Shown: positions 4,846 to 51,998, counted from the first letter of the stretch. The stretch: 64,000 nt of DNA from an uncultured Chloroflexia bacterium (GCA_963712475.1 CAVQIA010000011.1:57321-121320); one strand, 5' to 3'. Numbers and translations: made by a program. Notes: generated by a model not told the origin, from the letters alone.

Positions 4846-4871
4846 AAGGGCCGCCCTGCGATGGGCGGCCC
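4846..4871 (-). terminator. Hairpin ending the sulfur/cytochrome operon
   Basis: GGGCCGCCC-TGCGAT-GGGCGGCCC perfect 9-bp stem about 30 nt after the stop at 4901; weak U-tract. Confidence 0.55.
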
Positions 4872-4900: not shown

Positions 4901-6143
4901 CTATCCGCAGCCGCCGCCGCTCGGGCTGCGCTTGCGCTGCAGCTTCACCTTTGGTTCGTAGTCCAGCTGCCACTCGATCGCGTTCGGATTCGCCGCCTCG
5001 TAGCGCGAGCCCAGCGCCGCCGGGAAGAGATAGGCCAGTTGGTCGGAGCCTGCGGGCGTCGCCGCCGGGGTCACCTCGCTCTCACCTGCACCGAAGACCT
5101 TGATCCAGTTGTTGATCCCGCCCTCGAGAATATACACGTTGGAGACGCTTTCGGCTTGCAGCAGCTTCCACGCCTCGGTGGCTGCGGCCTCGTCGTTGCT
5201 CATGAGCACAGTGACCGTATTCTCGGCCGGCTGCTGGAGCAGGTCGGGGACGATTCCTCGCTAGCTGGTCGAGAGGGACGTGACGCGCACCATCCAAATG
5301 GAAGAGGTTGTAGTCGGCCTCGGAGCGCACATCCAGCATGAGCACGACCAGCTTGTCATCGGCGCGGCTCGTAAGAAGCTCACCCGGGTGGATCTGTACT
5401 TCGCGCGCGGCGAGTGCGGCTTCCTTCTGCGGGGCGACCCGCGCCCAACGCTGTGCGGCGCCCGGTTGGCCGATGACGAGCACGATCAGGGCCACCACGA
5501 TCAGCGCGCCCGCACCGGCATAGCGCAGCCGCGGTTCTCGTTTGAGGTCGCGCTTGCCGATGAGGCGTTCGAGTTGCTCGGCTCCCCAGAACATGAAGAG
5601 CGCCATGAGCACGACTAGTAGGACCACCACACCCGTGGGCAGGTGGAACACATCCATCAATGTCAGGCGGCCGAAGTAGCTCGAGTGCCAAAACGCGTCG
5701 AAGTACTGCTCGGTTTCGCCGAAGGCGAAGACGCCGAACAGCGCGCCCAGAAGAAACAGGATCCCGTCGATCTTGAAGGTGGCAGCTGAGACCACCGAAG
5801 TCCCGGGGCAGAACCCGCCGATGATGAAGCCGAAACCCATGATCACGCCACCCAGCAACCCCGGCCAGAGATACGTTTCAGGAACATAAACCAGATTGAA
5901 ATCGAGAATGCCGATGGCCGACGACAAGAAGATCAGGACCATAGCGGTGACGATGGCCCCGAACATCACCTTGAGCACGGTCAGGTCCTTGAAGTAGAAC
6001 TGGGCGGCCAGCTTCTTGGAGTTGCCGAACCCCGAGAGTTCGAGCACGTAGCCAAAGCCAAACCCGATGACTCCGAAGACCAGGTAAGTCCACGGGTTTT
6101 CACTTAGCGGCAGCAGGAAGGCTTGCAGTGGGAATATGGGCAT
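4901..6143 (-). CDS. YeeE/YedE thiosulfate-transporter-family protein fused to a rhodanese-like domain (frameshift near 5258)
   Basis: GFGNSKKL and GGFCPGTS YeeE motifs; LDVRSEADYNLFHLDGA and VYILEGGINNW rhodanese motifs; ends SGGGCG. Confidence 0.85.
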
Positions 6144-6152
6144 GGCGGCCTC

Positions 6153-6726
6153 CTAGTTCCAAACCTTGCGCAGGAAGTACGCCAGCGCATAGGCTCCGCC
6201 GAAGATGCACATCATGAGCGCCCACGAACCGGCGGAGAGGGTGGCGCCTCCAGAGAGCGCCTGCCCCGAGGTGCAGCCGCGGGCCATGCGCGCGCCGTAG
6301 GCCATGATCGTCCCCCCGGCAAACGCCAGGATCAGGCGCGTGCGGTTGCTGATGCGCGGTCCCTTGTTGATCTCAGGCTTGAGCCTGCCGTTGAAGAAGC
6401 CCGAGACCAAACCACCCAGGAGCGCCCCCGTGATGACCGGGACACTCCAGTCGTCGAGCGGGTTTCGGGCGCCACCTGCGAGCTTCAGCAGGTAGGGCGT
6501 GCGGTCGATGTGGCCGGGCGAGAGGGCGTCTTCGACAAGAGCCACGTAGCGGTTCATGCCGCCCGACGCGCCCAGGCCATTGCGCGTGAGCAGGAACGCC
6601 AGGAAGAGGACGATCCCAAGCAGTGCCCCGCCAAGGTAAGGATGGATGTAGGCCTTCTCGGGGCGCGAGAAGAACCTTCGCAACCCCGCCCGCGGTTTGA
6701 GTTCGAGCAGGCGCAATGGTCGTCAT
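6153..6726 (-). CDS. YeeE/YedE thiosulfate-transporter-family protein
   Basis: PYLGGALLG, GLGASGG, GARMARGCTSGQALSGG. Start is either TTG 6716 or ATG 6726 with an early frameshift. Confidence 0.88.
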
Positions 6727-9405
6727 GGAGTCTCCTTGTCGGCGGGATGGCTCTCGGCCGCGCCGGCTGTAGCGTGAGCTTCGACTTCTTCCCATCCATT
6801 CATCATGGCACCGATCGACGTCAGCGGCCGGTGCCCGGTCGTGGTGAGGTACACATGGCCGACGATGAACGCGGCAAAGGTCCAGGCCACCAGACTATGG
6901 AAGGGGGCGAGGAGCGGTAAGCCTCCGAACCAGGCGGCCACCTGCGGGAATTCCTGGACGCCCATCATCAACGCTCCCGAGACGATTTGCAGCGGCAGGA
7001 GCACGTTGAGAATGCCGAGGTAGGTCACCTGCTGCAATGGGTTCAGTTTTGTTTCGGGCCGCTTCTCGAAGGGGTGTGCCTGGCCGCGGAAGATGCCGCT
7101 CAGGTAGTACCTGGCCTGCACGATTGCATCGTCGAAGAACCCGTACGGGTGAGGCAGGTACTGCCGGATCCCGCCGCTGACCAGATGATAGAACAGTGAC
7201 AGCCCGGCGTTGACGACGAGCAGGATTGCGAGAACGTTGTGGATGGTGACCACATACGGGAAGCTGAACACGCCAAACACGTCCGGGCGGTGAATGATCA
7301 GGCCGGTGAAGAGCAGGATGAGGATGGCGAAGGTCTGCAGCCAGTGCCAGAAGCGCTCGTAGACCGCGTACATGTAGACGCGCTTGAGCTGCGTCGTGGG
7401 CCGGGGTGCCTTGAGCGCGACGAAGAAGCGCACGCCGCCGTGAACGGCCACGGCGCCCAGGACGCCCAGGAAGAATAGCCCGCCGGCCCAGTCCACCCAT
7501 GGCACACGATTGTGGCCGAGGACATACAAGTGCTGATCGCGCGTGGCCGGTGTGTAGGTGAGGCCCACCGCCGGCCGAGCCCAACGTGCCGGAGGTGGTG
7601 GTGTTCGAATCCTTGACGAACTCGGGCAGCACGCCGCCCGGGAGATTGGGGGCGAGCGTCACCGGTTGCGTGAGACGCGAATCGTCGCTGTGGCAGGTCT
7701 GGCACTCGCGGATAGCCCATTCGCCGCCGACCACATTGTGGTTGATGCTGTATGGTTGGATTTCGCCCTCGATGCGCGGGTTGGCCAGGCCGATCCCTTC
7801 GAGGAGCGAGGCGATGAAGGCGGTCTTGGCGGGTGTGTCCAGCCGCAGTTCTGAGTCGCTCAAGCTTCCATCACCATCGGAGTCCAGCGTCTTCACGACA
7901 TCGGGCCGGTACGTGCCGCCATCGAGATAAGCGGCCTCAAGGTCTTGCAGGCGGACGGGGCGCGGGCCGTTTGCATCGTCGTAGACCCAGTACCAGGCCG
8001 TGACCAGGTTATAGGGTGCGAGTTGATTGGCGCCATCGGTCGTTGTGCGGGAGAGGAGCACAGGGGTGAAGGCGGTCACCAGGTCTGAAAGGGAACCGCT
8101 CGTGCCTGCCACGCCGCGGCAAGTGCGGATTGCCTCGCCGCTTGGGCGCAGCACTGTCCAATCGTAAGATTGGACGGCGGGCGCGTAGAGCTCGGGTGTG
8201 TGGCAACTCTCGCAGGCAAGCTCCTGCATATGCCGGTCGGCATACGGCAGCCAGGTGTGCGAGCCGGTTGAGTCGTGACAGCCCTCGCAGCGGCGCATCG
8301 TGCCACGGAGTTCGGGCGCCAGGGTGGTCTGCGCACTCTCGCCGCGGGCCAAGTTGTGATCGGGCCGCTCGAGATACTCGCCAATCTCCAACCGCCGGGG
8401 ATCGAACTCGAGGTGCGTGGGTAATTGCTCTTTCACGGCGTAGGCCGGGTTGTTAAGCGAGTAGTGGCAGTCGGTGCACTCAACCCCGCGCTCGGCGTGG
8501 ACATCCCATGCGCGCGTGAGGCTGTCCTTGTTGGCCAGGTTCATGCCCGAAAGCGAAATGTCATCGCCAGAAATGACCTGGCCGGAGGTAGCAGTCTGCC
8601 AGTTGGTCAGATCGCAACCGGTCAGCGTGAGCGGAGTGTCGCTGGTGTGTACGAGGCCGTGGCACTGTGCACAATTCTCGTTGGTCGGATCCTGGATCGT
8701 GACCGTTGCCAGCAGACCGGCCTCGGTGAAGGCCGAGCGGTTCCAAGTGAAGCTGCCACCACTGGATACGACTATCCCAGTGCCGGCCAGAGATGCGGTG
8801 GCGGCCCCGCGAAAATCCCCAGACTGAATGGCGTTGACGCGAGCCCCGTTGTTCGGGTTGGGCAAGTGGCACAGGAAGCAATCGACCTCGAGCACTCCTG
8901 ACTTTGTCCAATCCCATTTCTCCGGGTTGGGGTTCCCCTCCGGGAGCGCGGCCCCGCTCGAGGCCAGCATGCCTGGCCCCCCGCCGACAAAGCGTGCGGC
9001 GTTTGCGCGGATCCAATCCGAGGTACCCAGGTCGAGCCGGCTGTCTCCCGTTGAGGAGAGGCTGCGGTAGGTGAGGGGGTTCCACTCGCCAAATGGGCCG
9101 TTGCTCAGATCCCACGCGCGCGCCACGTCGGACCCACCATAGGCGCTCAGCCCCATGTCGCTGTGGAAACTGTGGCTGGTGATGAACTCGGTGTCGTGAC
9201 ACTGCCCGCAGGTGCGCTGCGGCGAGACGGGCGCCCCGCTCTCGAGAACGTTCACGCCCTGTTCATCGAGGAAAGCAAACTGCGGGTGGATCGGCGAGGG
9301 TTGGGAGGCGGGCAGGGCGGTACCGTGCGCAAAAGCAATGCCCACGAGGCCGGCGCCGGCCAGCACGGCGAACGAGCTGAATGCGATCAGGCTCTTGCGT
9401 TTCAT
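6723..9405 (-). CDS. Heptaheme cytochrome c (OTR-like) fused to a C-terminal cytochrome b (HyaC/FdnI type); frameshift near 7570
   Basis: Signal peptide; 7 CxxCH (CGQCH, CFLCH, CAQCH, CTDCH, CEGCH, CESCH, CQTCH); frame 6723..7568 has YERFWHWLQ, IHNVLA, KLNPLQQVTY, PFHSLVA, GHVYL. Confidence 0.8.
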
Positions 9406-10844
9406 TGAGGGTCAAACCTCCCGCCCCATTCCATGGGATCGCCAGGGTAGCCCAGCGCCTCCCAATCCAGGCGGCCGTTGGAAGAGTGGCAGTCGTCGCA
9501 CTGCAGCGCGTTCTCCTTGGGTTGGACCATGTGAGTCGTGGGCCAGTACATGTAAGTCTCGGTGAAGCCGTAGCTGCCCGAATACTTGAGTCCCATGATG
9601 GTCTCGGCCAGGCGGAAGGAGTTGTCCCAATCGAAGTTGGTCCAATAGCCGTTGTCACCGGCTGTGATCGGTTGAAGCAAGTAGTTGTAGATACGGTCGT
9701 AGGGTTGATTCGCGACGTGAAGCTTGAACGGAAATATGCGTGAGGTCGGGTCGTCGCGGCTGCCCGCGGGCTGGTCGATCACTGTCGGGCGGATGGGGTC
9801 GACCTTATCGCCCAACAAGTAGCGGTAGGAGAGGTTCCCATCGAACCACATGTAGGTGGGCTTGAAGTCCTTCTGATAGACGAAGGTGCCTTTGATCTTG
9901 AGGTAGGTGTAGTGGTCCTCGGGTCGGTCCTGCCCGGCGGTCGACCAATCCCAGTAGGTCTTGGTTGGGTCCTTGACAGCCATGGCCGGGATGTGACAGG
10001 TCTGGCAGGCCACGCTCGTGACGTGCGAATTCAGCCGCTCGTCCTCGTGCGGTGCCGCGGCATGGCACTGCGTGCACGATACTTGTTCGGACGGCTCGAT
10101 GGTGTAGTTATCGGGGACCAGGCGGCCGAGGATCTGATGATCGCGGGTTGTGTGGCACGCGGTGCACTGCATGTCGAACTTCCCCATGTGCACGTCGAGT
10201 TCATCGCTGGGGAAGATCAGGCTCTGATCGAGGTCGCCATGCTTGACCCCGTTGCCGCCTCCACCATCGAAGTGGCACTTGCCGCACATCTCGCGCGTGG
10301 GAGCCTTAACACTCTGCGCGGCTGCGAGCAGGTCGATCCCTTCAACGGGGTTGCCGTAGTCGCCCTTGGCGTAGCTCGAGGGATCTGCATGACAGGCCAG
10401 GCAATCCACGTTCTCCTGGACTTTGAAGTCGTACGGGGCATCTTCTTGCCAACCGTAGCCGGTGTGGCACGACATGCACTGCTTCTGATTGCCTTGAGTT
10501 CCGATGCAGAAGTTGTTGATCTGATTGGCTTTGCCGATCGTCACCGGCTCGTCGCGCCAGGGAACGTCGAAGGGCTCCGATTCCCAAGTCCAGTGAGTGG
10601 TCTGCATCACCTGCCCCGCGGCATCCGGATGGCACGTCAGGCAATTGCGAGTGACCTCTTGGGGGGAGGTGAAGGGCCCCTGGATGATATCGGCGTGGGA
10701 GGTATGGATGGGAGTTGGCTGGATCGCCGCCTGCGGATCATCTGCCGGCGGCGAGGTCTTGGGCCAGAACAGCGCGACCGGGATGAGGATGACGGCCAGG
10801 GTAACGATCAGGCCGATCAACCAGATTGGGATTCTCTTTCGCAT
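9402..10844 (-). CDS. otr: Octaheme tetrathionate reductase (OTR)-family cytochrome c
   Basis: N-terminal TM anchor; 8 CxxCH (CLTCH, CMSCH, CLACH, CGKCH, CTACH, CTQCH, CQTCH, CDDCH); THWTW, GKANQINNFC, VKHGDLD, TKTYWDWSTAG motifs typical of OTR. Confidence 0.88.
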   Translation of the reverse strand: MRKRIPIWLIGLIVTLAVILIPVALFWPKTSPPADDPQAAIQPTPIHTSHADIIQGPFTSPQEVTRNCLTCHPDAAGQVMQTTHWTWESEPFDVPWRDEPVTIGKANQINNFCIGTQGNQKQCMSCHTGYGWQEDAPYDFKVQENVDCLACHADPSSYAKGDYGNPVEGIDLLAAAQSVKAPTREMCGKCHFDGGGGNGVKHGDLDQSLIFPSDELDVHMGKFDMQCTACHTTRDHQILGRLVPDNYTIEPSEQVSCTQCHAAAPHEDERLNSHVTSVACQTCHIPAMAVKDPTKTYWDWSTAGQDRPEDHYTYLKIKGTFVYQKDFKPTYMWFDGNLSYRYLLGDKVDPIRPTVIDQPAGSRDDPTSRIFPFKLHVANQPYDRIYNYLLQPITAGDNGYWTNFDWDNSFRLAETIMGLKYSGSYGFTETYMYWPTTHMVQPKENALQCDDCHSSNGRLDWEALGYPGDPMEWGGRFDPQ

Positions 10845-10868
10845 AGAGGCTCCTACGTTTCGGCTAGG

Positions 10869-11198
10869 CTACTCCGGGATGAGGCTGGCGCGGTGAGCGA
10901 GGCTGTCGCGCAAGACGGCGCGCAGCAGGTCGAGGGCATCGACGATGCGGTGATCGCACAGGGTGTATTCGATGTTCTGGCCTTGGCGCTCCGCGCGCAC
11001 CAGCCCATGCTCGCGCAGCACGCGCAGGTGGCGGGACGTGGTGGACTGGCTGATGTTCACATCGGCGGTGAGTTCGGTAACCGTGCGCGGCCTGTCCGCC
11101 AGGGCATAGATCAGGAGCAGGCGGCTGGGGTCGGCAAGGGCCGAGCACATGTCAGCGTGGAGATGAATCACTTCCTGGGAAAGCTGGGCTTTGTCCAT
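10869..11198 (-). CDS. ArsR/SmtB-family transcriptional regulator
   Basis: ALADPSRLLLIYAL...TVTELT...SQSTTSRHLRVLREHGLVRAERQG winged HTH; first gene of the operon. Confidence 0.92.
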   Translation of the reverse strand: MDKAQLSQEVIHLHADMCSALADPSRLLLIYALADRPRTVTELTADVNISQSTTSRHLRVLREHGLVRAERQGQNIEYTLCDHRIVDALDLLRAVLRDSLAHRASLIPE

Positions 11199-11210
11199 TG
11201 TGTGACCCAT

Positions 11211-11291
11211 TGCGGATATGCGGTAATCCGCATACTCGCGATGACATATGAATACAACCCGGGAAGTAGCTGGCAAAGTGACGGCTGTCAC
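11211..11291. promoter_or_regulatory. Palindromic candidate operator sites upstream of the ArsR/OTR operon
   Basis: TGCGGAT-N8-ATCCGCA (11211-11232) and GTGAC-N4-GTCAC (11278-11291) in a relatively AT-rich leader. Confidence 0.45.
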
Positions 11292-11911
11292 ATGCAGCTG
11301 CGAGAAATGTAACGTGAAATATGACGCTATGGAGGAATGACTGTCAAGTGGGTACGTGCGTCAAGTGACAGCGCCCGATTCGCGGCTGGATGTTACTTTC
11401 GGTGCACGGGGCATCCTACGGGTCGGCCCAAGTTTCATCTTTGCTTCTCGTCAGGGGCGAGCGTGATGCTGGCGATCGGCCTGAGCGACGGGTTGCCTGG
11501 CGCATGTTGACAATCTGCCTTGATCACGCAGCCTCTGTCCGCGAACGCGCCACGGAGCGATGCGTCCGGGAATGCGCTTTCCTCCAACGTCGGATCTATC
11601 CCGCGGAGATCAATTGGCGAGACGGGCGATCCCGCTTTGCCTGATCAGGATCTCGCAGCGCGATTTGCAGCGCCAGCACCCTTGGCTCCCCGGTTGATGT
11701 TGGGGGAGTTGGCAATCCGCGGCTGAGATTGGTGATGATCATGCGAGCCTGTTGCGGCGTGGAGGGGTTGGCCGTCGACACTCGGGTTGGCGTTTGGTCG
11801 TCGCCCTAGCTTGGAGATCAAGGGCCATGCGCGCGGCTTCGCTTGACTCCTCCGCCATTCGACGTATCATTGCATTCGCAGCACCCCGCAGACATCGGAG
11901 GCCAGTTGGCC

Positions 11912-12434: not shown

Positions 12435-13169
12435 TTACTGGCAACTGATCCTCAGCTTGGCGAATGCCGTGGCCAGCGTCCGTTGCGTCTTGTCGAAGTA
12501 GCCATCGGTCATCTTGTCAACCAGGCCGTTCTTCCGATACACCCCATCCGCATGGTGGTAGTTCATCCTGTCGAGCAACACATGATCGACCTTCCCCGCG
12601 AGCATGTCCGGGAGAGTTTCCGCGCCCGGAAGGATGGGTGCGATCATGGCAAAGGTGCTGATCCCGGCCTGGTGCAGGACCTCAAGCGCCCGGATCCTCT
12701 CCTCGATCGGAGGGGCCTTTGGCTCGAAGAGTTTGCGGATACCGTCATCGGCCGTGGTCACGCTCAACCCGACCTCGAAATCGCTGCCTCTTTCCAGAAC
12801 GTCGATATCTCGCAGGACTCGAGGCGATCGGGTTTGAACCGTGACGGGCCAGTTGTTACGCGCGAGGATTTCCAGGCAACGGCGGGTAAGCCTGTACTTC
12901 GCTTCCAGCGGTTGATACGGGTCGCATACTCCGCTGATCCAGACTCTTCCCTTCTTCTTCCTGGCGACCTCGCGTTCGAGAAGCTCAGGCGCATTCACCT
13001 TGACATCCACGAATTGACCCCAGGGTTCCTGGTGTCCGGTGAACCGCTTCATGAATCGAGCGTAGCAATAAGAGCAGGCATGCGCACAACCCGTGTACGG
13101 ATTGATGACGTAGGGGAAGACCTTCGACACGGACAAAATCGTCTTGGGCTGAGTTTCCTTGATGACCAT
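12435..13169 (-). CDS. Radical SAM protein, spore-photoproduct-lyase-like family
   Basis: INPYTGCAHACSYCYA (CxxxCxxC), SGVCDPYQPLE, QTRSP, FEPKAPP...R. Confidence 0.88.
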   Translation of the reverse strand: MVIKETQPKTILSVSKVFPYVINPYTGCAHACSYCYARFMKRFTGHQEPWGQFVDVKVNAPELLEREVARKKKGRVWISGVCDPYQPLEAKYRLTRRCLEILARNNWPVTVQTRSPRVLRDIDVLERGSDFEVGLSVTTADDGIRKLFEPKAPPIEERIRALEVLHQAGISTFAMIAPILPGAETLPDMLAGKVDHVLLDRMNYHHADGVYRKNGLVDKMTDGYFDKTQRTLATAFAKLRISCQ

Positions 13170-13288
13170 GCTCCTATTATAGGCGCGTCGGATCGAGATA
13201 GCCTGAGCCCCAGAGCATGGGCAGTCACGCGATAAGGTGATGCCTGTTCCTGCACAAGGGAATGTGAACCCGCACATGTGCGGGCTTG

Positions 13289-13315
13289 CGAGGTGAGCCG
13301 CGGGCAACTCGGACG
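13289..13315 (-). repeat. Degenerate copy of the tRNA-Lys 3' end (att-like site), with adjacent hairpin at 13267-13287
   Basis: CGAGGTGAGCCGCGGGCAACTCGGACG matches 16998-17024 with 2 mismatches in 27 nt. Confidence 0.85.
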
Positions 13316-18195: not shown

Positions 18196-19583
18196 GTGAG
18201 CAAGCTCGTCATCGGCCCGACCTTCGAGGAAATGCTTCACCCCGATCGCGTGGATGCGGCCACCCGCAAGCGCGCACTGGCGATGCGCAAGAAGGACCCG
18301 CTCGACCCGGTCAACCTCTACAACATCACCTGGCGCGATCCCGAGAACAAGATCATGTTCGAGGTCATCCCGCCTGAGCTGACCGGGGTCGAGGCCCCGA
18401 TCGTCGTCTTGTACGGGCGCGACTTCCCGACCGGCTCGCACAAGGTCGGCGCGGCCTACTCGTGCCTGATCGAGAAGGAGATCTTCGGCGAGGTCGACCC
18501 GGCCGTGCACACGCTGGTGTGGCCCTCCACCGGCAACTACGGCATCGGCGGCGCGTGGGTGGGCTGCCGCATGGGCTTCAACAGCATTGTCGTGCTGCCG
18601 GAGCTCATGAGCAAGGAGCGCTTCGAGCAGATCGAATCCTACGGCGCGCGGGTCATCAAGACTCCCGGCTCGGAATCGAACGTCAAGGAGATCTACGACA
18701 AGACCTGGGAGCTGCGCCGCGACCCGAAGATGCGCGTCCTCAATCAGTTCGAGGAGATGGGCAACTACCGCTTCCACTATTACGTCACCGGCAACACGAT
18801 CGTCGAGCTGGCGGCCGTGCTCAAGAAGCAGCGCATCGGCGTGGGACGCATCGCGGCCTATTGCTCGGCCATGGGCTCGGCCGGCACCATCGCCGCGGGC
18901 GACCGCCTCAAGCAGGTCTGGCCGGAGGCGCACGATCGTCGGGCTCGAGCCGATCCAGTGCCCAACGCTTTACAACAACGGCTACGGCGCGCACGACATC
19001 CAGGGTATCGGCGACAAGCACGTCACCTGGATCCATCACGTGACCGAAATGGATGCCATCGTGTGCCTGGACGACATCGAGTGCAAGAAGGGCCTGCAGA
19101 TGCTCACCGAAGAGGCCGGCTGGAAGGTCATGGCCCGCACGCTGAAGATCCCCTCGGCCAAGATCAAGTCGCTGGCTTCGATCTTCGGCATCTCGGGCGT
19201 GTGCAATGTGCTGGGGGCGATCAAGACGCGCGAAGCACTTCAACTTCGGCGCCGACGACGTCATCGTCACCATTTGCACCGACACCATCGACCGCTATCA
19301 CTCGACGATGAAGGACATGACCCGCACCTACGGGCGGATGGACGAGCGCGAGGCCTATGCCCGACTAGTTTCGATCTTCCACGGCCAGAGCACCGATTGG
19401 ATGAAGGACGGTACGCCCGATATGCGCCGCCAGTGGCACAACCTGAAGTATTACACCTGGGTCGAGCAGCAGGGCAAGACCGTGAAGGAGCTCGACGCAC
19501 AACTCAGCCCTGAATGGTGGACCATGCACCAGTCGCGGGTCAGCGACATCGACAAGCGCATCAAGGAGACGCGTGGAAGCTAG
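18196..19583 (+). CDS. Fold-type II PLP-dependent enzyme (cysteine synthase/threonine dehydratase superfamily); frameshifts near 18930 and 19230
   Basis: TGSHKVG Schiff-base Lys, PSTGNYG, GSAGT, GISGVCN, ICTD; spread over three frames. Confidence 0.85.
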
Positions 19584-34832: not shown

Positions 34833-37584
<2,752 letters not shown>

Positions 37585-39480: not shown

Positions 39481-40900
39481 CTAGACCAGCCTTTCGCGCA
39501 CGCGTGGCGCTGAGGAAATCCAGAGGATCATGACGACGACGGCGATGGCAATGAAGCCGCGCTGACCGCCCGGTAATCGCCTGAGCACGATCCACTGCCA
39601 CAGGTAGAAGCCGATCCCGCCGCCGCCGACGAAGCCGATGATCGTCGAGGAGCGCACGTTGATGTCCCAGCGGTAGATGGTGAAGGCGGTGAAGGGCGGG
39701 ACGATCTGCGGGATGACGCGCGTAGCGCACAACCTGCGACCAGTTGGCGCCCGTGGCGCGGATCGGCCTCGATCGGGCCCGGGTCGATCCCTTCGATCAC
39801 TTCGGAATACAGCTTGGCCAGCGCGGCGACCGTGTGCACGGTCAGCGCCAGCATGCCCGGCGAACGGGCCCAGGCCGACGATGACCACGAAGACAATGGC
39901 GATGATCAGGGCTTCGATCGAGCGGACGATGTTGAGGATCGTCCGCACGATGACGTAAATGGCACATGGTGACCGGGTTGCCGCCCATCAGGTTGCGGGC
40001 CGCCAGGAAGCTGATCGGCAGGGCCAGCAGCGGCGCCCAGGGTGGTGGCCATCAGCGCCATGGCCAGGGTCTCGTAGATCCCCTGGACGACGTAGCGGCC
40101 GTTACGCGAGATCTCGATGCCGCCGATCTGGCCGCGCTGGTCGAAGTAGATGCGGTGGCTTGAGCGGCATGGTCGGATCGGGCATTGCATCAGGCGCGCT
40201 GGGCACGCGGATGGCGCCGTGATCATGCCCGCCTGCGTCGGTGGTCACGATCAGCATGGCGTTGTTTTCGCCGCCCAGCGAGCTTGATCGTCGCCGATCG
40301 GGGTCTCCCAACAGATCTCGGTGGACGTCGTCGGGCCACAGCCCGTCGACGGAGACGATCAGCGTCTCGCTCACGCCGGCGCAGTCCGGGGTAGCGAATG
40401 CAGGGTGACGCCGTCCTGACCGTGTGCTCGGCCGCGGGCGGAGCCTGAGTCGAGCAGGGGACCGGTGATCGCGCACCCAGCCCTGGCGGCTCATTCGGTG
40501 CGGGCGGTCAACGAAGTCGGGATGCAGCATCGGGCGGAGCACTGAGCGTGGCCCGCTCGGAGTTCTCGATGAAGGCGCTGAAGTCGATCTCGACCACCTG
40601 CCAGCCGATGCCGTAGGCCGTCGCCAGCCCGACAGCAAGGCGGCCACCAGAACGGACGCCGCCGCGCGGCCAGTGCGCGGCATCCCAGATGTTCCAGAGC
40701 CATAGATCGCAGCCGGCGCGAGACCAGCCGGATTGCCGTACCAGAGCCACCATCCGGTCGTCACCAGCAGTGGCCGATCAGGATGACGCCCGCGCGATAG
40801 CCATTGCCGGGCGCAGACCTGCCCCAGGCCGGGGATCAGCGCAGACAGAACCAACGGCCAGCGAGGCGCGAGCGTCCTGGCGGACGTTGCTCGGCGTCAT
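39481..40900 (-). CDS. phnE: PhnE-type ABC permease 1 with N-terminal extension, multiple frameshifts
   Basis: ETLAMALMAT, RSIEAL, LAKLYSEVIE, YRWDINVRSSTIIGFVGGGGIG. Confidence 0.78.
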
Positions 40901-41675
40901 GCCGCCTCCAACGAGGTGGCACGCACTTCCTGAGCCTCCTCGCCGTAGATCTCTTTGAATTGCGCGCGGTCGATCTCCTGCGGCAGGCCTTCGAAGACCT
41001 TGACGCCGTCCTTGAGGGCGATGACGCGCGTGGCGTAGCGATGGACGAGGTCCAGGAAGTGCAGGCTGCAGATGACCGTCATGCCGTCTTCTTGTTCAGC
41101 TGTTCGAGATACTGCAGGATGGAATGCGACAGGACCGGGTCGAGGCTGGCGACCGGCTCGTCGGCCAGGATGCATGCGCGGCTCCTGCATCAGGGCGCGC
41201 GCAATGCCCACACGCTGCTGCTGGCCGCCGGAGAGCGCATCGGCGCGGCTGTCCGCCTTGTCGGCGATGCCCACTCGCTCGAGGGCACTGCATGGCGCGC
41301 TGCTTCTCGCTCGGCGGCCAGATGCCCGAGCATGGAGAGCCAGGGGTTGGCGTATCCCAGCCGCCCGCTGAGCACGTTGGTCATCACGCTCGAGCGCTTG
41401 ACCAGGTTGAACTGCTGGAAGACCATGCCGATGCTCGCGGCGGATGTGGCGCAGTTCGGCCTGGAGACGCCGCGGTGACGTCGACATCGTCCCAGAGGAT
41501 CTTCCCGGAGGTCGGATCGATCAGCCGGTTGATGCAGCGCAGGAGGGTGGACTTGCCCGATCCGGACAGGCCGATCACGACCAGGAACTCGCCGTCGGTC
41601 ACCTCGAAGCTGACATCCTTCAGCGCCACGGTCCCGCTCGGATAGATCTTGGTCAGAGTTCTGGACTCGGAGCAC
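40897..41675 (-). CDS. phnC: PhnC-type ABC ATPase, frameshifted
   Basis: [49 protein letters not shown]. Confidence 0.88.
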
Positions 41676-41747
41676 GGGGCACTCTCCCGGGGCGAGGGCG
41701 GGATGAGAAGAGAGGGAGGAACTCCCTCTCTCCTCGGTGGAACGGAT

Positions 41748-42756
41748 CTACTTGAAGAGCGTCGCGACGTCGACGCCGGAGGCTTCGAGGTAGACACGGA
41801 ACTCATCGTAGAAGGTGTCGTCATGCGCGACGAGCCCGTCGATCTGGTACACGGTCTTCAAGGCCGCCTTGCCCTCTTCGGTCCCGGCGATGCTTCAGCA
41901 GCGCCGCGACGATCTTGGCGCGCATGTCGTCTGGGACATCGGGGGCGAAGGAGACGGTGTCGTTCGGGATGAACGGCTCGCTCTTGTAGATCACGACCAC
42001 CTTGTCCATGACATCCGGCAGGTCCTTCTGGATGGCGGACGAGGTGCGGGCGTCGATGAAGACGGCGCCGAAGTCGCAGATGCCCTTGGCGTAGACGGCG
42101 CGCACGACAGCCGGGTGGCCGCCAGACGAAAGCCGCCGCACTACCGGACTTGATCGGCACTCCGTACTTCGCGAAGAACCCGACCGGGAGCACATAGCCG
42201 GAGGACGAAAGCGGGTCGGTCCAGCACGGCTTCTTGTCCTTGAATTGCGGCCAGGGCCGTGGCCGCATCGTCACGTTGGCGTGAAGTGCGCTGTCGACAT
42301 GCGAGCATGATCTCGAAGCCGTAGTGATCGGAGCCGTTGCGGATGGTCACCAGGCTGACGTCGGCATAGCCCTTCTGCGAGGCCACGACGTACGAGAAGG
42401 TGGCCAGCCAGCCGATCTGCGCATTGCCCGAGCCCATGGCCTCGATCAAGGCACTGTAGGAGGTCGGCCTGGAAGAGCTTGATGGTGTAGCCGGTCAGCT
42501 CGGTGAAGCTGCTTGGCGATGGCCTCGCCGCCGGTCAGGATCTCCTGGGATGTGCCGGAGGGCACAAAGCCCATGATGATCGGGTTCTCGGCGGTGCCGA
42601 GCATTGGCGGCGGAACGGGGGTGGCCGTCGGAACTGGCGGTGTCGTCGGCTCAGGGGCCATTGTGGCGACAGGAGCGGGGGTGGGGGTCGCGCATCCGGC
42701 GAGCAGCGTCGCGACCACGGTGAAGGTTACCAGCGGAAGATAAGTCTTTTGCCCAT
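41748..42756 (-). CDS. phnD: PhnD/PtxB-family substrate-binding lipoprotein, frameshifted
   Basis: LLAGC lipobox, Pro/Thr linker, [29 protein letters not shown]. Confidence 0.83.
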
Positions 42757-42999
42757 GCGTGTCTCCTATTCTTCTCCTCTGCGGTCTCTTGCGGATCGTT
42801 CCCGGACAAGACAAAGACAGGGCAATGCTCAGGGGTCGGACCCTTTGGCTTGACCTCCTCTCGAGATTCGTTCGGTTGGTTCCGTCTTATGATTCTCCAC
42901 AACCGGCTGTCGTTCGACTCGAGCGGGCCGGATACCGTGCCGGTGGACGAGGGAGCACACAATCGATACGGCCGCCGTCCTCGGAGTCCCCAGGTCCAC

Positions 43000-45333: not shown

Positions 45334-47478
45334 ATGAATCAGCCTGGGTCCACTCCCGCCGGACCCCTGCGGGACTTCTTTGCCCCGCGCGGCATCGTCG
45401 TCATCGGCGTCTCGCGCGATCCAACTCCACTCGGTACGGCCTGGCACGCAACGTCGTACGCACCTCGCCGGTGCCTGTGCACCTCGTCCATCCGGAGGGC
45501 GGGGAGTGGGAAGGGCGCACGCTGCATCGGGAGGTGCGCGATGTGCCGCTCCCGGTGGATCTTGCCCTGATCCTGCTGCCCGCCGCCAAAGTGAGCGATG
45601 CGTTGCGCCAATGCGCGCAGGCGGGAGTACGCGCCGCCATCGTCGAATCCGGTGGCTTTCGCGAGAGCGGCGCTGAAGGCGGACGGCTCGAAGAAGAACT
45701 CAAGGTGGTGGCACGCGAGTGCGGAGTCCGCATGATCGGCCCCAACTGCATCGGCGTCGTCGACACGCACGTGCCACTCGACACGACCTTCTTGCCCGCG
45801 CGTGCCGACCGCTCAGGAACGATCGCGTTCGTCTCGCATTCGGGCGCCACGTGCTCCGCGATGCTCGACCTGGCGCTGGTCGAAGGCTGGGGCTTCTCGC
45901 GGGTGATCAGCCTGGGCAACCAGGCCGACGTCAGCGAGGCGGACGCGCTGCTCTGCCTCGCCCATGACCCGCATACGCAGGCGATCGCCCTCTACCTGGA
46001 AGGCATTCGAAGACGGCGCGCGCCTCCTCTCGGCCGCGCGCACCGTCGCCCGGCTCAAACCCATCGTCGCGCTCAAGGTGGGGCAATCGGCCCGAGGGCA
46101 GCGCGCGGCGCGCTCGCACACCGGCGCGCTCGCGACAAGCGGACGCGTGGTGGAGGCGGCCTTTGCGAGTTGCGGGATCTTGCGAGCGCATACGCTAGAA
46201 GAGACGTTCGCTCTCGCGCTCGGGTTGGCGCAGCTCAAGCCCTGCGCCGGGCCGCGCGTCGCGATCTTGACCAATGCGGGAGGTCCGAGCGTCATGGCTG
46301 CGGACCTTCTGGTCGAGCATGGCCTGGAGTTGGCGAACCTCTCCGCCGCCACACGCGAGAAGTTGGCTGAGAGGCTTCCACCCGCGGCTGCGCTCGGCAA
46401 CCCGGTGGATATGCTGGCTTCAGCCGGCGCGGATGAACATGCGGAGTGTGCAGGCGTGCTACTCGAGGACAGTGGTGTGGACGCGTCGATCGTGACGATC
46501 GTCCCGCCGCCGATGCACGATGTCGTCGCCGTCGCCGCGGCGCTGGCGCCCGCGTTGCGTGCGGCGGCCAAACCCGTGGCGGTCTGCATCATGGGCGGGA
46601 CCTCGGCCGCGAAAGCCCGAGAACGCCTGCGTCGAGCAAGGGGTGATGGAGTGCACATACCCGTCGCGGGCAGTGCTGGCCATCTCCGCCGCGTGGCGGC
46701 GGTCATCTATCCACCCGTCGGGCGGGGAACTGCTCGCGGCGCGGATGGGATTGGCGGGGTCTTCCTCACGCGATACTCACCCGCCGGCTGGCGATGGCGC
46801 GGAGCCTGGCGCGGGGTTCGAACTGGCGCAAGCGATCGGTCTGCACTGTCCGACATGGCAATTCGCCGCCGATGAAGCGCAGGCCGTCACCGCTGCGAAT
46901 GCCGTCGGTTACCCTGTTGCCCTCAAGGCCGTCGCCCGAAAGCTGATACACAAATCCGAGGGCAGGCGGTGTTGCACTCGGCTTGGTCAGTGATGACGAG
47001 GTGCGAGAAGCCCATCGCAGGATGAGGGTCGCCGTTGAGGCGTTCGCCGGGAAGGACGCGTGGCAGGGGGCGCTCGTACAGGCGATGGCGCCTGGTGGCC
47101 AAGAAGTGATCGTGGGCGCCGTCCGCGATCCGCAATTCGGACCGCTGATCGCGTTCGGGAGCGGCGGCAAGGAGGTTGAGGGCATGGGCGATGCTATCCT
47201 TCGCCCTCGCCCCATTGAGCACGCATGCCGCCGAGGCGCTGCTCGACCGAACCTGGGCTGGCCGCCGCCTGAGCCGCGCACCGGCAGCCCATCGCGACGC
47301 TGTTCTGCACGCGCTGACCGTTGTGGAGCAGATCTGATGCTCAGCCCATCCGGAGCTAGTTGAGTTCGAGGTGAACCCGTTGATTGTCACCCCCCGCGAG
47401 GCGTGGGCGGTGGACGTCCGCTTCAGCCTGGATCAGGCCTCCTTCATGGAGAGGTCGAGCTCAGCGCCGCCTGCCTAG
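45334..47478 (+). CDS. ADP-forming acetate/acyl-CoA synthetase (fused alpha/beta), frameshifted
   Basis: SGGFRE, IGPNCIG, SLGNQADV, SHTGALA, LTNAGG, GYPVALK, DPQFGPLI, EVNPL. Confidence 0.85.
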
Positions 47479-50651: not shown

Positions 50652-51998
50652 TCACTTGGTGGTCTTCGTTGCCCCGCCCTTGCGTCCAAACTTCTCAGTC
50701 AGGATCTCCCGGAGAGTGGGCTGTCCGATCTCCTGCAGCTCGTAACGAACGCGCTGCGTGGGTTTGTTGATCTTGATCAGCCGGCCCAGATCGATGGGCG
50801 TGCCGATGAGCACCAGGTCGGCCGGTGCGTTGTTGATGGTCTGCGCGAGTTCACGGATCTGTTCGGCCGAATAGCCCATGGCAGGCAGCACCGCGCCGGT
50901 CGTGGGGTACTTCTCGTACGTGCGGGCAATGGAGCCCACGGCATACGCGCGCGGATCGATGATCTCGGCCGCCCCAAAGCGGCGCGCGGCCATCCAGCCC
51001 GCGCCGTAAGCCATCTCGCCGTGGGTCAGCGTCGGGCCATCCTCGATGACGAGCACTTTGGCGCCGCGGATCGCGGCCGGGTCGTCGACAAAGAGCGGCG
51101 AGGCCGCTTCCACCAGGATCGCCGCGGGGTTCAGGCGGCGCAGGTTCTCGCGCACGGTCAACGTGCTTTGCGCGTCGGCCGTATCTACTTTGTTGATGAG
51201 CAGCACGTCGGCCGCGCGCACGTTGGCCTCACCGGGGTGGTAGCGGGTTTCGTGCCCCGGGCGGTGCGGGTCGGCCACCACGATCTGAAGGTCGCTGACG
51301 ACGAAGGGCAGGTCGTTGTTGCCGCCATCCCACAGGATGATGTCCGCTTCTTGCTCGGCCTGTCGCAGGATCTTCTCGTAGTCGACGCCCGCGTAAACGA
51401 TCACCCCTTGCGCCAGATGCGGTTCGTATTCCTCACGCTCCTCGATGGTGCAGTTGAACTCATCCAGGTCGTCCAAGTCCGCAAAGCGTTGGACGGCCTG
51501 TGCCACCAGGTTGCCGTAAGGCATCGGGTGGCGGATGGCGGCCACCTTGTAGCCCAGGTCGCGCAGGACGGACGACACGGCACGCGTGGTCTGGCTCTTG
51601 CCCGAACCGGTGCGCACGGCGCAGATCGAAACCACCGGGCGATTGGATTTCAACTGCGTGGCGCGAGCGCCCAACAATCGGAAGTCGGGCCCGGCGGCGA
51701 CCACCGTCGAGGCATGATGCATGACGGTCTCGTGCGAGACATCGCTGTAGGCGAAGACAACCTCGTCGACGGCCAGCGACCGGATCAGCGACACCAGGTC
51801 GCCTTCGGCGTGGATGGGGATTCCCTTCGGGTAGAGCTTACCCGCGAGCTCCGGAGGATAGACACGGCCTTCGATGTTCGGGATCTGGGTCGCGGTGAAC
51901 GCCACGACTTCGATATCCGGGTTGTTGCGATAGGCCAGGTTGAAGTTGTGGAAGTCGCGCCCCGCCGCGCCCATGATAAGAACACGCCTTTTGGCCAT
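50652..51998 (-). CDS. P-loop protein of the cyclic-2,3-diphosphoglycerate-synthetase-like family (possibly arginine synthetase ArcE-like)
   Basis: GAAGRDFHNFN, AVRTGSGKSQT, RHPMPYG, IEEREEYEPH, WDGGNND, EDGPTLTHG, LPAMGY. Confidence 0.85.
   Translation of the reverse strand: MAKRRVLIMGAAGRDFHNFNLAYRNNPDIEVVAFTATQIPNIEGRVYPPELAGKLYPKGIPIHAEGDLVSLIRSLAVDEVVFAYSDVSHETVMHHASTVVAAGPDFRLLGARATQLKSNRPVVSICAVRTGSGKSQTTRAVSSVLRDLGYKVAAIRHPMPYGNLVAQAVQRFADLDDLDEFNCTIEEREEYEPHLAQGVIVYAGVDYEKILRQAEQEADIILWDGGNNDLPFVVSDLQIVVADPHRPGHETRYHPGEANVRAADVLLINKVDTADAQSTLTVRENLRRLNPAAILVEAASPLFVDDPAAIRGAKVLVIEDGPTLTHGEMAYGAGWMAARRFGAAEIIDPRAYAVGSIARTYEKYPTTGAVLPAMGYSAEQIRELAQTINNAPADLVLIGTPIDLGRLIKINKPTQRVRYELQEIGQPTLREILTEKFGRKGGATKTTK

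Follow-up and report, generated by a model that had tools for sequence, protein, structure and literature searches.

The window studied here is a stretch of 64,000 nt from an uncultured Chloroflexia bacterium (GCA_963712475.1, CAVQIA010000011.1:57321-121320), and its positions 4901-11198 hold, on the minus strand, a block of five genes in the same direction. These encode an ArsR-family regulator, an octahaem cytochrome c of the OTR family, a heptahaem cytochrome c continued by a cytochrome b, a membrane protein resembling the C-terminal half of YeeE, and a second one resembling its N-terminal half and followed by a rhodanese domain. We think that this operon encodes a molybdenum-free, quinol-fed reductase under ArsR control, whose substrate, on the outer side of the membrane, would be an inorganic sulfur compound from the class of thiosulfate, polysulfide and tetrathionate, and we put the probability of this reading at about 60%. 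Its strongest evidence is that, in distant relatives, the same channel and cysteine-bearing arm are accompanied either by OTR and a cytochrome b or by a reductase of the Psr/Phs type. We also think it probable that the host is a bacterium of the Anaerolineales and that the operon is intact in nature.

Organization and conservation of the operon

The genes, as assembled in the window, are the following.

10869-11198, minus strand: ArsR/SmtB-family repressor, 109 aa (HTH_5 63.6 bits; NF033788 81.4 bits against a cut-off of 55)
9402-10844, minus strand: OTR-family octahaem cytochrome c, 480 aa, intact, with an N-terminal hydrophobic anchor and eight CXXCH motifs (TIGR04315; 1SP3)
7570-9405, minus strand: heptahaem cytochrome c part of the fusion gene, with a signal peptide and seven CXXCH motifs
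7563-7569, minus strand: frame break by a single surplus base where haem c passes into cytochrome b (tblastn frame change from -2 to -3)
6723-7562, minus strand: cytochrome b part (PF01292), one extra transmembrane (TM) helix and then a four-helix b-type core
6153-6726, minus strand: membrane protein resembling the C-half of YeeE, with a surplus A at 6702/6703 (Sulf_transp 76.8 bits)
4901-6143, minus strand: YeeE N-half, extra TM helix, rhodanese domain lacking the catalytic Cys, and ...SGGGCG arm, with a break at about 5254-5262

The identities and order of the genes, which had been predicted from the sequence, are borne out by family matches, and the CXXCH count gives the expected eight haems in OTR and seven in the heptahaem part. 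The positions of the open reading frames (ORFs) likewise agree with five co-oriented genes separated by overlaps or gaps of 24 nt or less. The gap from ArsR to OTR is 24 nt, the OTR stop and the start of the heptahaem gene overlap in an ATGA at 9405, the cytochrome b stop (6723-6725) shares another ATGA with the true ATG (6726-6724) of the first YeeE gene, and 9 nt precede the second YeeE gene (start 6143, end 4901).

A species-level scan (one genome per species) with the fused cytochrome returned at least 559 stretches, and conservation was counted in the best 80 loci, as loci with the neighbour over loci with contig room for it. OTR and cytochrome b are each present in 76/76 loci, the YeeE C-half in 73/73, the YeeE N-half and the rhodanese domain each in 68/68, and ArsR lies upstream in 55/71, so that the synteny check shows a strongly conserved cluster. 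Nearly all of these 80 loci are labelled Anaerolineae or Chloroflexota; four carry other labels (Vicinamibacterales, Ideonella, Lysobacterales and Thiobacillus). The genes flanking the block are shared with a genus mate alone, and because they are conserved just within the genus, the block can be regarded as self-contained, as the original prediction had it. Two loci have additional genes: in L029 a second ArsR gene and a second, distant pair of YeeE halves (29-33% identity) lie directly downstream of the main operon, and in L052 an extra ArsR gene follows the operon.

Exchange of the reductase beside the channel and arm

For a more distant set, relatives ending in ...GGC were aligned and metagenome contigs were scanned; in 37 of the loci obtained, the contig reaches 2.4 kb or more upstream. 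The YeeE halves lie side by side in all 65 distant loci with room. In 27/37 loci OTR precedes a plain cytochrome b that lacks a heptahaem domain, whereas in 9/37 (L119, L122, L123, L141, L145, L158, L163, L185 and L186, all metagenome contigs without OTR) molybdopterin, 4Fe-4S and NrfD-type subunits stand in the place of OTR; the remaining locus has neither. In L122, which was checked by Pfam, the three genes code for a molybdopterin subunit with a twin-arginine (Tat) signal, a 4Fe-4S protein and a membrane subunit of the NrfD type. Among NCBIfam models, PhsA fits the molybdopterin subunit best in the four of the nine loci that were scored, with 457-486 bits, which is under the cut-off of 694 but far above other families.

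In the Psr/Phs-linked loci the N-half of YeeE is unfused, and after it come one or two anchored rhodanese proteins, about 200-240 residues long, with the ending ...KKKK..EGGC. These separate arm proteins have only an N-terminal anchor and are encoded beside a Tat-exported enzyme, which gives independent support to an outward placing of the arm. Since the channel and arm pair with two unrelated, periplasm-facing and quinol-linked reductases, the substrate of OTR would here be of the Psr/Phs kind. The exchange, which we regard as our strongest evidence, argues that OTR acts on a substrate of the thiosulfate, polysulfide or tetrathionate kind, and the earlier proposal of a sulfur substrate thereby gains support.

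The same loci bear on another explanation, in which OTR reduces or detoxifies nitrite, hydroxylamine or a similar N-oxide and the sulfur genes are incidental neighbours. Nitrite and hydroxylamine are the best in-vitro substrates of OTR (Atkinson 2007, summarised in PMC12949373), and otr serves in some studies as a marker of dissimilatory nitrate reduction to ammonium (PMC11879220). Nevertheless, the channel and arm stay beside OTR in 68/68 and 73/73 of the best-80 loci with room and in the 27 distant loci just mentioned, sulfur reductases of the Psr/Phs type replace it in the other nine, and no nitrogen-oxide regulator or transporter appears among the family matches of the block proteins. We consider this explanation very unlikely.

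OTR and its electron supply

The OTR gene is free of breaks, and its product scores 555.9 bits with TIGR04315 against a cut-off of 375. It aligns with the OTR of Shewanella oneidensis (PDB 1SP3) with an E value of 4e-134 over residues 49-472, including the lysine of the GK motif, and this lysine (K105) is invariant in 45/45 aligned sequences. OTR is said to have been crystallised in 2004, and Mowat reportedly described in that year a ligation of the active-site haem by Lys56, without a CXXCK motif.

The cytochrome b part gives 89.6 bits with Ni_hydr_CYTB (PF01292, cut-off 30.1), which places it in the HydC/FdnI/PhsC-type family. Its best NCBIfam match is PhsC (NF011582), with 132.5 bits and thus under the equivalog cut-off of 204. 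Six histidines (His687, 705, 722, 740, 836 and 850 in the numbering of P0001, an intact homologue of the fusion protein) are invariant in 18 sequences. For the heptahaem part there was no PDB sequence match at E <= 0.01. The chain from quinol through cytochrome b and seven haems to OTR, which had been put forward from the sequence, remains the natural reading of domain order and topology. Maturation of the c-type cytochromes seems to follow the Ccm route, to judge from the gene content of the source genome (G000): outside the window (G000:C4:1531268-1538647, minus strand) there are two Cytochrom_C_asm genes 6 kb apart, one CcmF-like of 692 codons and one CcmC-like of 267 codons, and no ResB (PF05140) turned up in the genome, whose completeness is 87.8%.

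The original prediction had taken the operon more literally. OTR would reduce free tetrathionate, the YeeE pair would import thiosulfate, a cytoplasmic rhodanese would hand the sulfur on and ArsR would sense persulfides. The membership of OTR in its family speaks for this model, as do the proven import of thiosulfate by YeeE (PMC7449682), the 36-fold increase of otr upon tetrathionate in an acidobacterial metagenome-assembled genome (MAG) from sediment microcosms, and the thermodynamically downhill transfer from menaquinol to tetrathionate, for which a potential of +198 mV is quoted (both PMC8528874). On the other side, gene knockouts published in 2026 showed that Shewanella ANA-3 needs Ttr and Psr to respire tetrathionate but can do without OTR, and the same study describes the in-vitro activity of OTR with tetrathionate as low and its role as unestablished, perhaps sulfite reduction (PMC12949373). 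Tetrathionate reduction by OTR, which the original prediction took as established, is an activity seen only in vitro. The properties of the channel, the rhodanese domain and the regulator, which are given in the following sections, count further against the literal model, and we think it unlikely.

Split channel, rhodanese domain and cysteine arm

Both YeeE halves belong to the Sulf_transp fold family (PF04143, cut-off 27): the C-half matches positions 173-309 of 310 with 76.8 bits, and the N-half, in the intact homologue P0121, positions 4-194 with 44.6 bits. Both channel cysteines are kept, one in each half, in the motifs GFCPG and RGCTSG; in StYeeE, C91 and C293 are essential (PMC7449682). 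The TsuA equivalog NF052577 is far from reached, with 32.6 bits against a cut-off of 400, and the protein is split over two genes instead of forming a single nine-helix chain, so that a plain thiosulfate importer, as in the literal model, is poorly matched.

The rhodanese fold is clear in P0121, which scores 51.7 bits against a cut-off of 22.2, while the two pieces in the window stay under this value (20.6 and 19.1 bits) because of the frame break. Foldseek relates the model of P0121 to many rhodanese structures with a probability of 1.00; near the top of this search with the whole model there were just rhodanese folds, and YeeE (6LEO) did not appear. The active-site loop reads MSNDE, without the catalytic cysteine of a rhodanese. 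The conserved thiol lies instead on the C-terminal tail, which ends in ...SGGGCG in the window protein and in GGCG in 119/119 close homologues, and in 105 of these 119 it is the sole cysteine of the last 185 residues. Down to about 30% identity, 85 of 94 full-length cluster representatives have a cysteine at most three residues from the end, after a linker rich in Lys and Arg. The AlphaFold2 model of P0121 has a mean confidence score (pLDDT) of 88.7, and the tail alone is low (61 and 43), as expected of a flexible arm. A complex prediction of OTR residues 45-480 with rhodanese-arm residues 228-413, both given as alignments, returned a score of 0.00, which speaks neither for nor against a complex.

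The side of the membrane on which this arm lies can be derived from YeeE. StYeeE has nine TM helices (PMC7449682), and YeeD, which can be fused to the C-terminus of YeeE, binds the cytoplasmic face (PMC11073785); the N-terminus of YeeE should therefore face out, and the helix past its first half should return to the cytoplasm. In the window N-half protein, this returning helix is followed by a loop with seven Lys/Arg in 17 residues, a further helix and then the rhodanese domain. Homology and the positive-inside rule thus both place the domain and its tail outside the membrane. Since the rhodanese lacks its catalytic cysteine and is predicted outside, as is the separately anchored exported protein of the Psr/Phs-linked loci, we have abandoned the cytoplasmic sulfur hand-off that had been assigned to it.

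Proposed mechanism and alternatives

In the mechanism that we propose, the cytochrome b domain would oxidise menaquinol, and the electrons would pass through the two b haems and seven c haems of one polypeptide to the membrane-anchored OTR, at whose Lys-ligated haem the substrate would be reduced. The two half-size YeeE proteins would together make one YeeE-like channel, and the extra helix of the N-half would put the catalytically dead rhodanese domain and its ...GGCG tail on the outer face. There, the tail cysteine would most likely bind the sulfur species covalently, as a persulfide or a thiosulfonate, and it would present the sulfur to OTR, pass it to the channel mouth for import, or do both. 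We infer in this scheme the direction of electron flow, the outward topology, the covalent carriage and the identity of the substrate. Published observations that speak for it are soxY-S3 and soxZ as neighbours of otr in lucinid symbionts (PMC11237559), the response of otr to tetrathionate in sediment microcosms (PMC8528874) and a polysulfide reductase that combines haem with Cys/Sec (PMC13510729).

A more specific version, which we hold tentatively and at somewhat less than even odds, is that OTR does not act on a free anion but on sulfur carried covalently by the tethered, outward cysteine arm, in the form of a persulfide, polysulfide or thiosulfonate adduct. If this is true, OTR and its cytochrome b would be a haem-based, molybdenum-free equivalent of the Psr/Phs reductases, and the arm would move back and forth from the reductase to the split YeeE channel mouth, coupling respiration with sulfur import.

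The arm also brings up the oxidative direction, in which thiosulfate or sulfide would be oxidised on it, as SoxAX does on SoxY, and electrons would run from OTR through the heptahaem protein to the quinone pool. It resembles the arm of SoxY, onto which a c-type cytochrome loads thiosulfate oxidatively (PMC11582611), and a divergent soxY (soxY-S3) adjoins otr together with soxZ in lucinid symbionts, which are sulfur oxidisers (PMC11237559). Against this direction, no SoxB, SoxZ or SoxAX was seen in the block, and where the channel and arm have another partner, it is a reductase of the Psr/Phs type. Moreover, Anaerolineales are expected to use low-potential menaquinone, so that transfer from thiosulfate to the quinone would be uphill. 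We find an oxidative role highly doubtful.

Several points weigh against the reading of the operon as a quinol-fed sulfur reductase. It is drawn from genes and homology in this lineage, and the outward topology depends on the positive-inside rule and analogy. On tetrathionate, the ttr otr double mutant of Shewanella ANA-3 equals the ttr mutant (PMC12949373), and the in-vitro preference of OTR for nitrite and hydroxylamine, mentioned above, belongs here too. The operon is also patchy: 2/5 genus mates carry it, as compared with 0/13 in the rest of the family and 3/12 further genomes of the order, and an evenly spread sample of the phylum shows it in 19/400 other genomes, all of one family (19/24 there). 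Finally, with the window ArsR as the query, an ArsR gene was found beside the distant versions in just 1/80 metagenome loci.

Regulator and control DNA

The regulator belongs to the ArsR/SmtB family by the scores listed above. A persulfide sensor of the BigR/SqrR type, as had been suggested for it, is not what we find: BigR equivalog NF040642 gives 48.2 bits against a cut-off of 155, and the cysteine pair of BigR/SqrR is not kept. Cys18 is invariant in 59/59 module-linked orthologues and Cys81 occurs in 2/59, so that a two-cysteine persulfide switch is unsupported, which removes one more element of the literal model. A thiol sensor with one cysteine is possible.

The following elements accompany the genes.

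11318-11347, minus strand: promoter-like site upstream of arsR (TTGACA, 18 nt, CATATT), a consensus match
11208-11243, no strand assigned: imperfect inverted repeat with 16-nt arms and a 4-nt spacer, directly 5' of the arsR ATG, a candidate operator
4848-4871, minus strand: 9-bp perfect G+C hairpin 3' of the last stop codon, with no U-run

The inverted repeat is a candidate ArsR operator on sequence grounds; 12/15 of its arm positions are kept in a genus-mate locus (L014), and, on informal inspection, half-sites like it lie around -35 to -50 in some further loci. Promoter-like sites are matched by consensus alone, and the two seen compare with 1.1 expected in shuffles. The hairpin predicted at the end of the operon does exist as a 9-bp stem, but its role as a terminator finds little support, since it has no U-run, a terminator scan called no canonical terminator 3' of the last gene, this hairpin included, and a 70-nt fold around it has a z of -1.26, with no gain over shuffles. 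Further upstream on the same strand, 1.1 kb from arsR, there is an ORF of 290 codons (12435-13307, minus strand), which stands beside the operon in 0/80 genome loci and whose radical SAM label comes from reading the sequence alone.

Frame breaks and assembly quality

The original prediction had treated the genes as unbroken, which proved incorrect: in the assembly, three of the five contain one inserted nucleotide each, at about 7567, at 6702 and at 5258-5260. The break between the heptahaem and cytochrome b parts, at about 7563-7569, leaves ORFs 6895-9405 and 6723-7568 in different frames, and tblastn with the intact P0001 (893 aa) finds haem c in frame -2 and cytochrome b in frame -3, while two residues correspond to the 7 nt at 7563-7569. 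The break between YeeE and rhodanese, at about 5254-5262, separates ORFs 5082-6143 and 4901-5209, which P0121 (413 aa) matches by tblastn in frames -3 and -1. In the first YeeE gene, alignment with genus mates puts the extra A at 6702/6703, eight codons past the true ATG.

Because of these breaks, both fusions are inferred from intact homologues. They hold as single genes there (893 and 413 aa), but neither can be read as one frame in the window DNA. Among the best 80 loci, haem c and cytochrome b share one frame in 80/80, and YeeE and rhodanese in 68/68, and the same is seen in two genus mates.

We think that the three breaks are very probably consensus errors of a long-read MAG. The source genome is a MAG of 12 contigs, as compared with 140-520 contigs in its genus mates, which suggests a long-read assembly. 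In the correct frames the proteins have no stops and are 80-94% identical to intact homologues; the heptahaem part is 80% identical to residues 1-612 of P0001, and P0121 is about 94% identical to the YeeE-rhodanese protein of the window. The extra letters are missing in genus mates and in contigs about 95% alike. Short-read contigs from wetland and peat metagenomes, which represent related strains and are mostly 90-99% alike, have one letter fewer at 5258/5260 and at 6702 in three studies each, and at 7567 in two, the other two runs not spanning that site.

The same type of break is found in essential and central-metabolism genes, which favours assembly error. In rpoB (G000:C5:298873-302649, plus strand, outside the window), model positions 600-666 lie in another frame and are flanked by the main frame of 1320 codons, which implies that this essential gene contains a compensating pair of indels separated by about 200 nt. 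In the window, a pyruvate phosphate dikinase gene (34860-37575, plus strand) is broken at 37211/37213, with PEP-utilizers_C continuing at 190|191 of 293 across frames, and the gene of a CoA-binding/Succ_CoA_lig protein of the ADP-forming acyl-CoA synthetase type (45435-46629, plus strand) is broken at about 46000, with the domain split at 65|65 of 138. A phosphonate-type ATP-binding cassette (ABC) transporter operon (39484-42886, minus strand) lies in many short frames, with a broken ABC ATPase and phosphonate-binding protein at 41.4-42.3 kb; ABC_tran positions 1-52 and 79-129 are in different frames, and so are Phosphonate-bd positions 36-89 and 139-227. The PALP region (18196-19571, plus strand; an enzyme dependent on pyridoxal phosphate, model positions 33-173 of 295) appears to continue through two more frames, whose pieces have no Pfam match. 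In the same genome, rpoC and two uvrA genes are unbroken. A further junction, at 51977/52070, was rejected as a frame break, being an ordinary gene boundary before arginyl-tRNA synthetase.

Frame switches were also counted by a codon-usage heuristic in three 400-kb pieces, with a complete single-contig genome of the same order as control. There are 513 candidate switches in the genome, or 12.75-20.25 per 100 kb against 1.0 in the control, a contrast that is flattered by the lower G+C of the control (53.8% against 64%).

That lower G+C is one point against consensus errors, and another is that at 6702, in run X1, the omission accounts for just 6.07 of 10.8 depth units. The alternative is that the operon is truly decaying in this strain, with three real frameshift pseudogenes beside an intact OTR. 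It agrees with three uncompensated 1-nt insertions inside 2.4 kb, none of them in a long homopolymer, and with an operon that is accessory and patchy among relatives. Nevertheless, the same break type in rpoB and central-metabolism genes, the excess of frame switches throughout the genome (about 13-20 per 100 kb) and the stop-free coding sequence so close to intact homologues make decay rather improbable. Among public sequencing runs, no RNA run was listed for the locus, and the best DNA run contained 0.24 of its words. Separately, the OTR gene is irregular in two other MAGs: it has one in-frame stop in L042:5372-6847, and it is split over two frames in L013:1719-3168 (G024).

Significance

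The natural role of OTR is disputed, and this operon, which is conserved in more than 500 genomes at species level, gives it a dedicated quinol-oxidising partner, a sulfur channel and an invariant carrier cysteine. Genes for otr are on record from Anaerolineae bins (PMC7887784). The exchange of OTR and Psr/Phs-type reductases beside the same channel and arm offers a concrete and testable hypothesis. If our reading is true, the Anaerolineales, which are abundant in wetlands, peat and sludge, would gain a molybdenum-free link, respiratory or for sulfur scavenging, to intermediates of the sulfur cycle.

The system had been called undescribed, and this can be maintained in part. We found no description of the operon in the literature searched, the coverage of which leaves out subscription journals, and the supplements of PMC7887784 and PMC8528874 may bear on a prior description. 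A cluster of Otr and cytochrome b561 with a link to the quinone pool is, however, on record in an Ignavibacteria MAG (PMC7509429), and the named members of our distant clusters, which are Bacteroidales and Ignavibacteria MAGs, fit it.

Comparison with known systems

The window OTR shares with that of Shewanella the eight CXXCH motifs, the aligned lysine of the unusual haem ligation and a TIGR04315 score above the cut-off. The Shewanella enzyme is described as soluble and fed via CymA and periplasmic carriers (PMC12949373), whereas the window protein has an N-terminal hydrophobic anchor and, in one operon, its own heptahaem-cytochrome b partner, a split YeeE channel and a cysteine arm.

For the electron input, the nearest likeness in description is CbcL of Geobacter sulfurreducens, which is listed among inner-membrane quinol oxidoreductases (PMC11492766). 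Both are one polypeptide with a multihaem c part and a b-type cytochrome, and they are set side by side here by description. In CbcL, the multihaem c domain on the outer face is joined to the membrane b-type cytochrome, and there are nine haems. The window fusion has seven, and its partner is a dedicated terminal enzyme and not an extracellular electron conduit.

In Psr/Phs systems together with Sud of Wolinella, a periplasmic sulfur-binding rhodanese-like protein, there is, as proposed here, a periplasm-facing, quinol-linked sulfur reductase with a cysteine-bearing carrier of rhodanese fold, and the OTR-linked cytochrome b is nearest to PhsC. The window operon differs from Psr/Phs in having no molybdopterin, Fe-S or NrfD subunits, with catalysis proposed at a haem, and from Sud in that the carrier thiol sits on the C-terminal tail and not in the active-site loop of the rhodanese.

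A haem-based reduction of polysulfide is known from MccSep, a pentahaem selenoprotein of Geobacter with cysteine and selenocysteine that was described in 2026 as a polysulfide reductase (PMC13510729). The likeness lies in a multihaem cytochrome c that would reduce such a substrate by Cys/Sec chemistry at a haem centre. MccSep is of another cytochrome family, with five haems, a Cys-ligated haem and the selenocysteine in the same chain, and the accessible text of that source describes neither a channel nor a tethered arm.

With TsuA-TsuB (YeeE-YeeD), the window proteins share the PF04143 fold and the two essential channel cysteines, and YeeD, like the rhodanese arm, is a partner protein that gives a further cysteine at the channel mouth (PMC11073785). 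The window channel is split into two genes and its TsuA equivalog score lies far under the cut-off; its partner has a rhodanese fold and is predicted at the outer mouth, whereas YeeD has a TusA fold and acts at the cytoplasmic one.

The last comparison is with the Sox system. SoxY has the arm motif GGCGG, and a C-terminal Gly-rich arm with one cysteine is likewise present in the window protein. A SoxY fold and a SoxZ partner are absent: the fold is that of a rhodanese, and no Sox family match was obtained in the block. By analogy, the rhodanese arm may work like SoxY without being a member of its family. In SoxYZ, too, sulfur is carried outside the membrane by the cysteine of a flexible Gly-rich arm at the C-terminus, and it has been proposed that YeeE-like SoxT of Hyphomicrobium and Paracoccus takes up sulfane sulfur bound to SoxY and sends a signal to the repressor SoxR (PMC11582611). 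As compared with SoxYZ, SoxT and SoxR, the window operon has no SoxZ, SoxB or SoxAX; its arm is built on a rhodanese fold that is fused or tethered to the channel, and the redox partner of this arm would be OTR.

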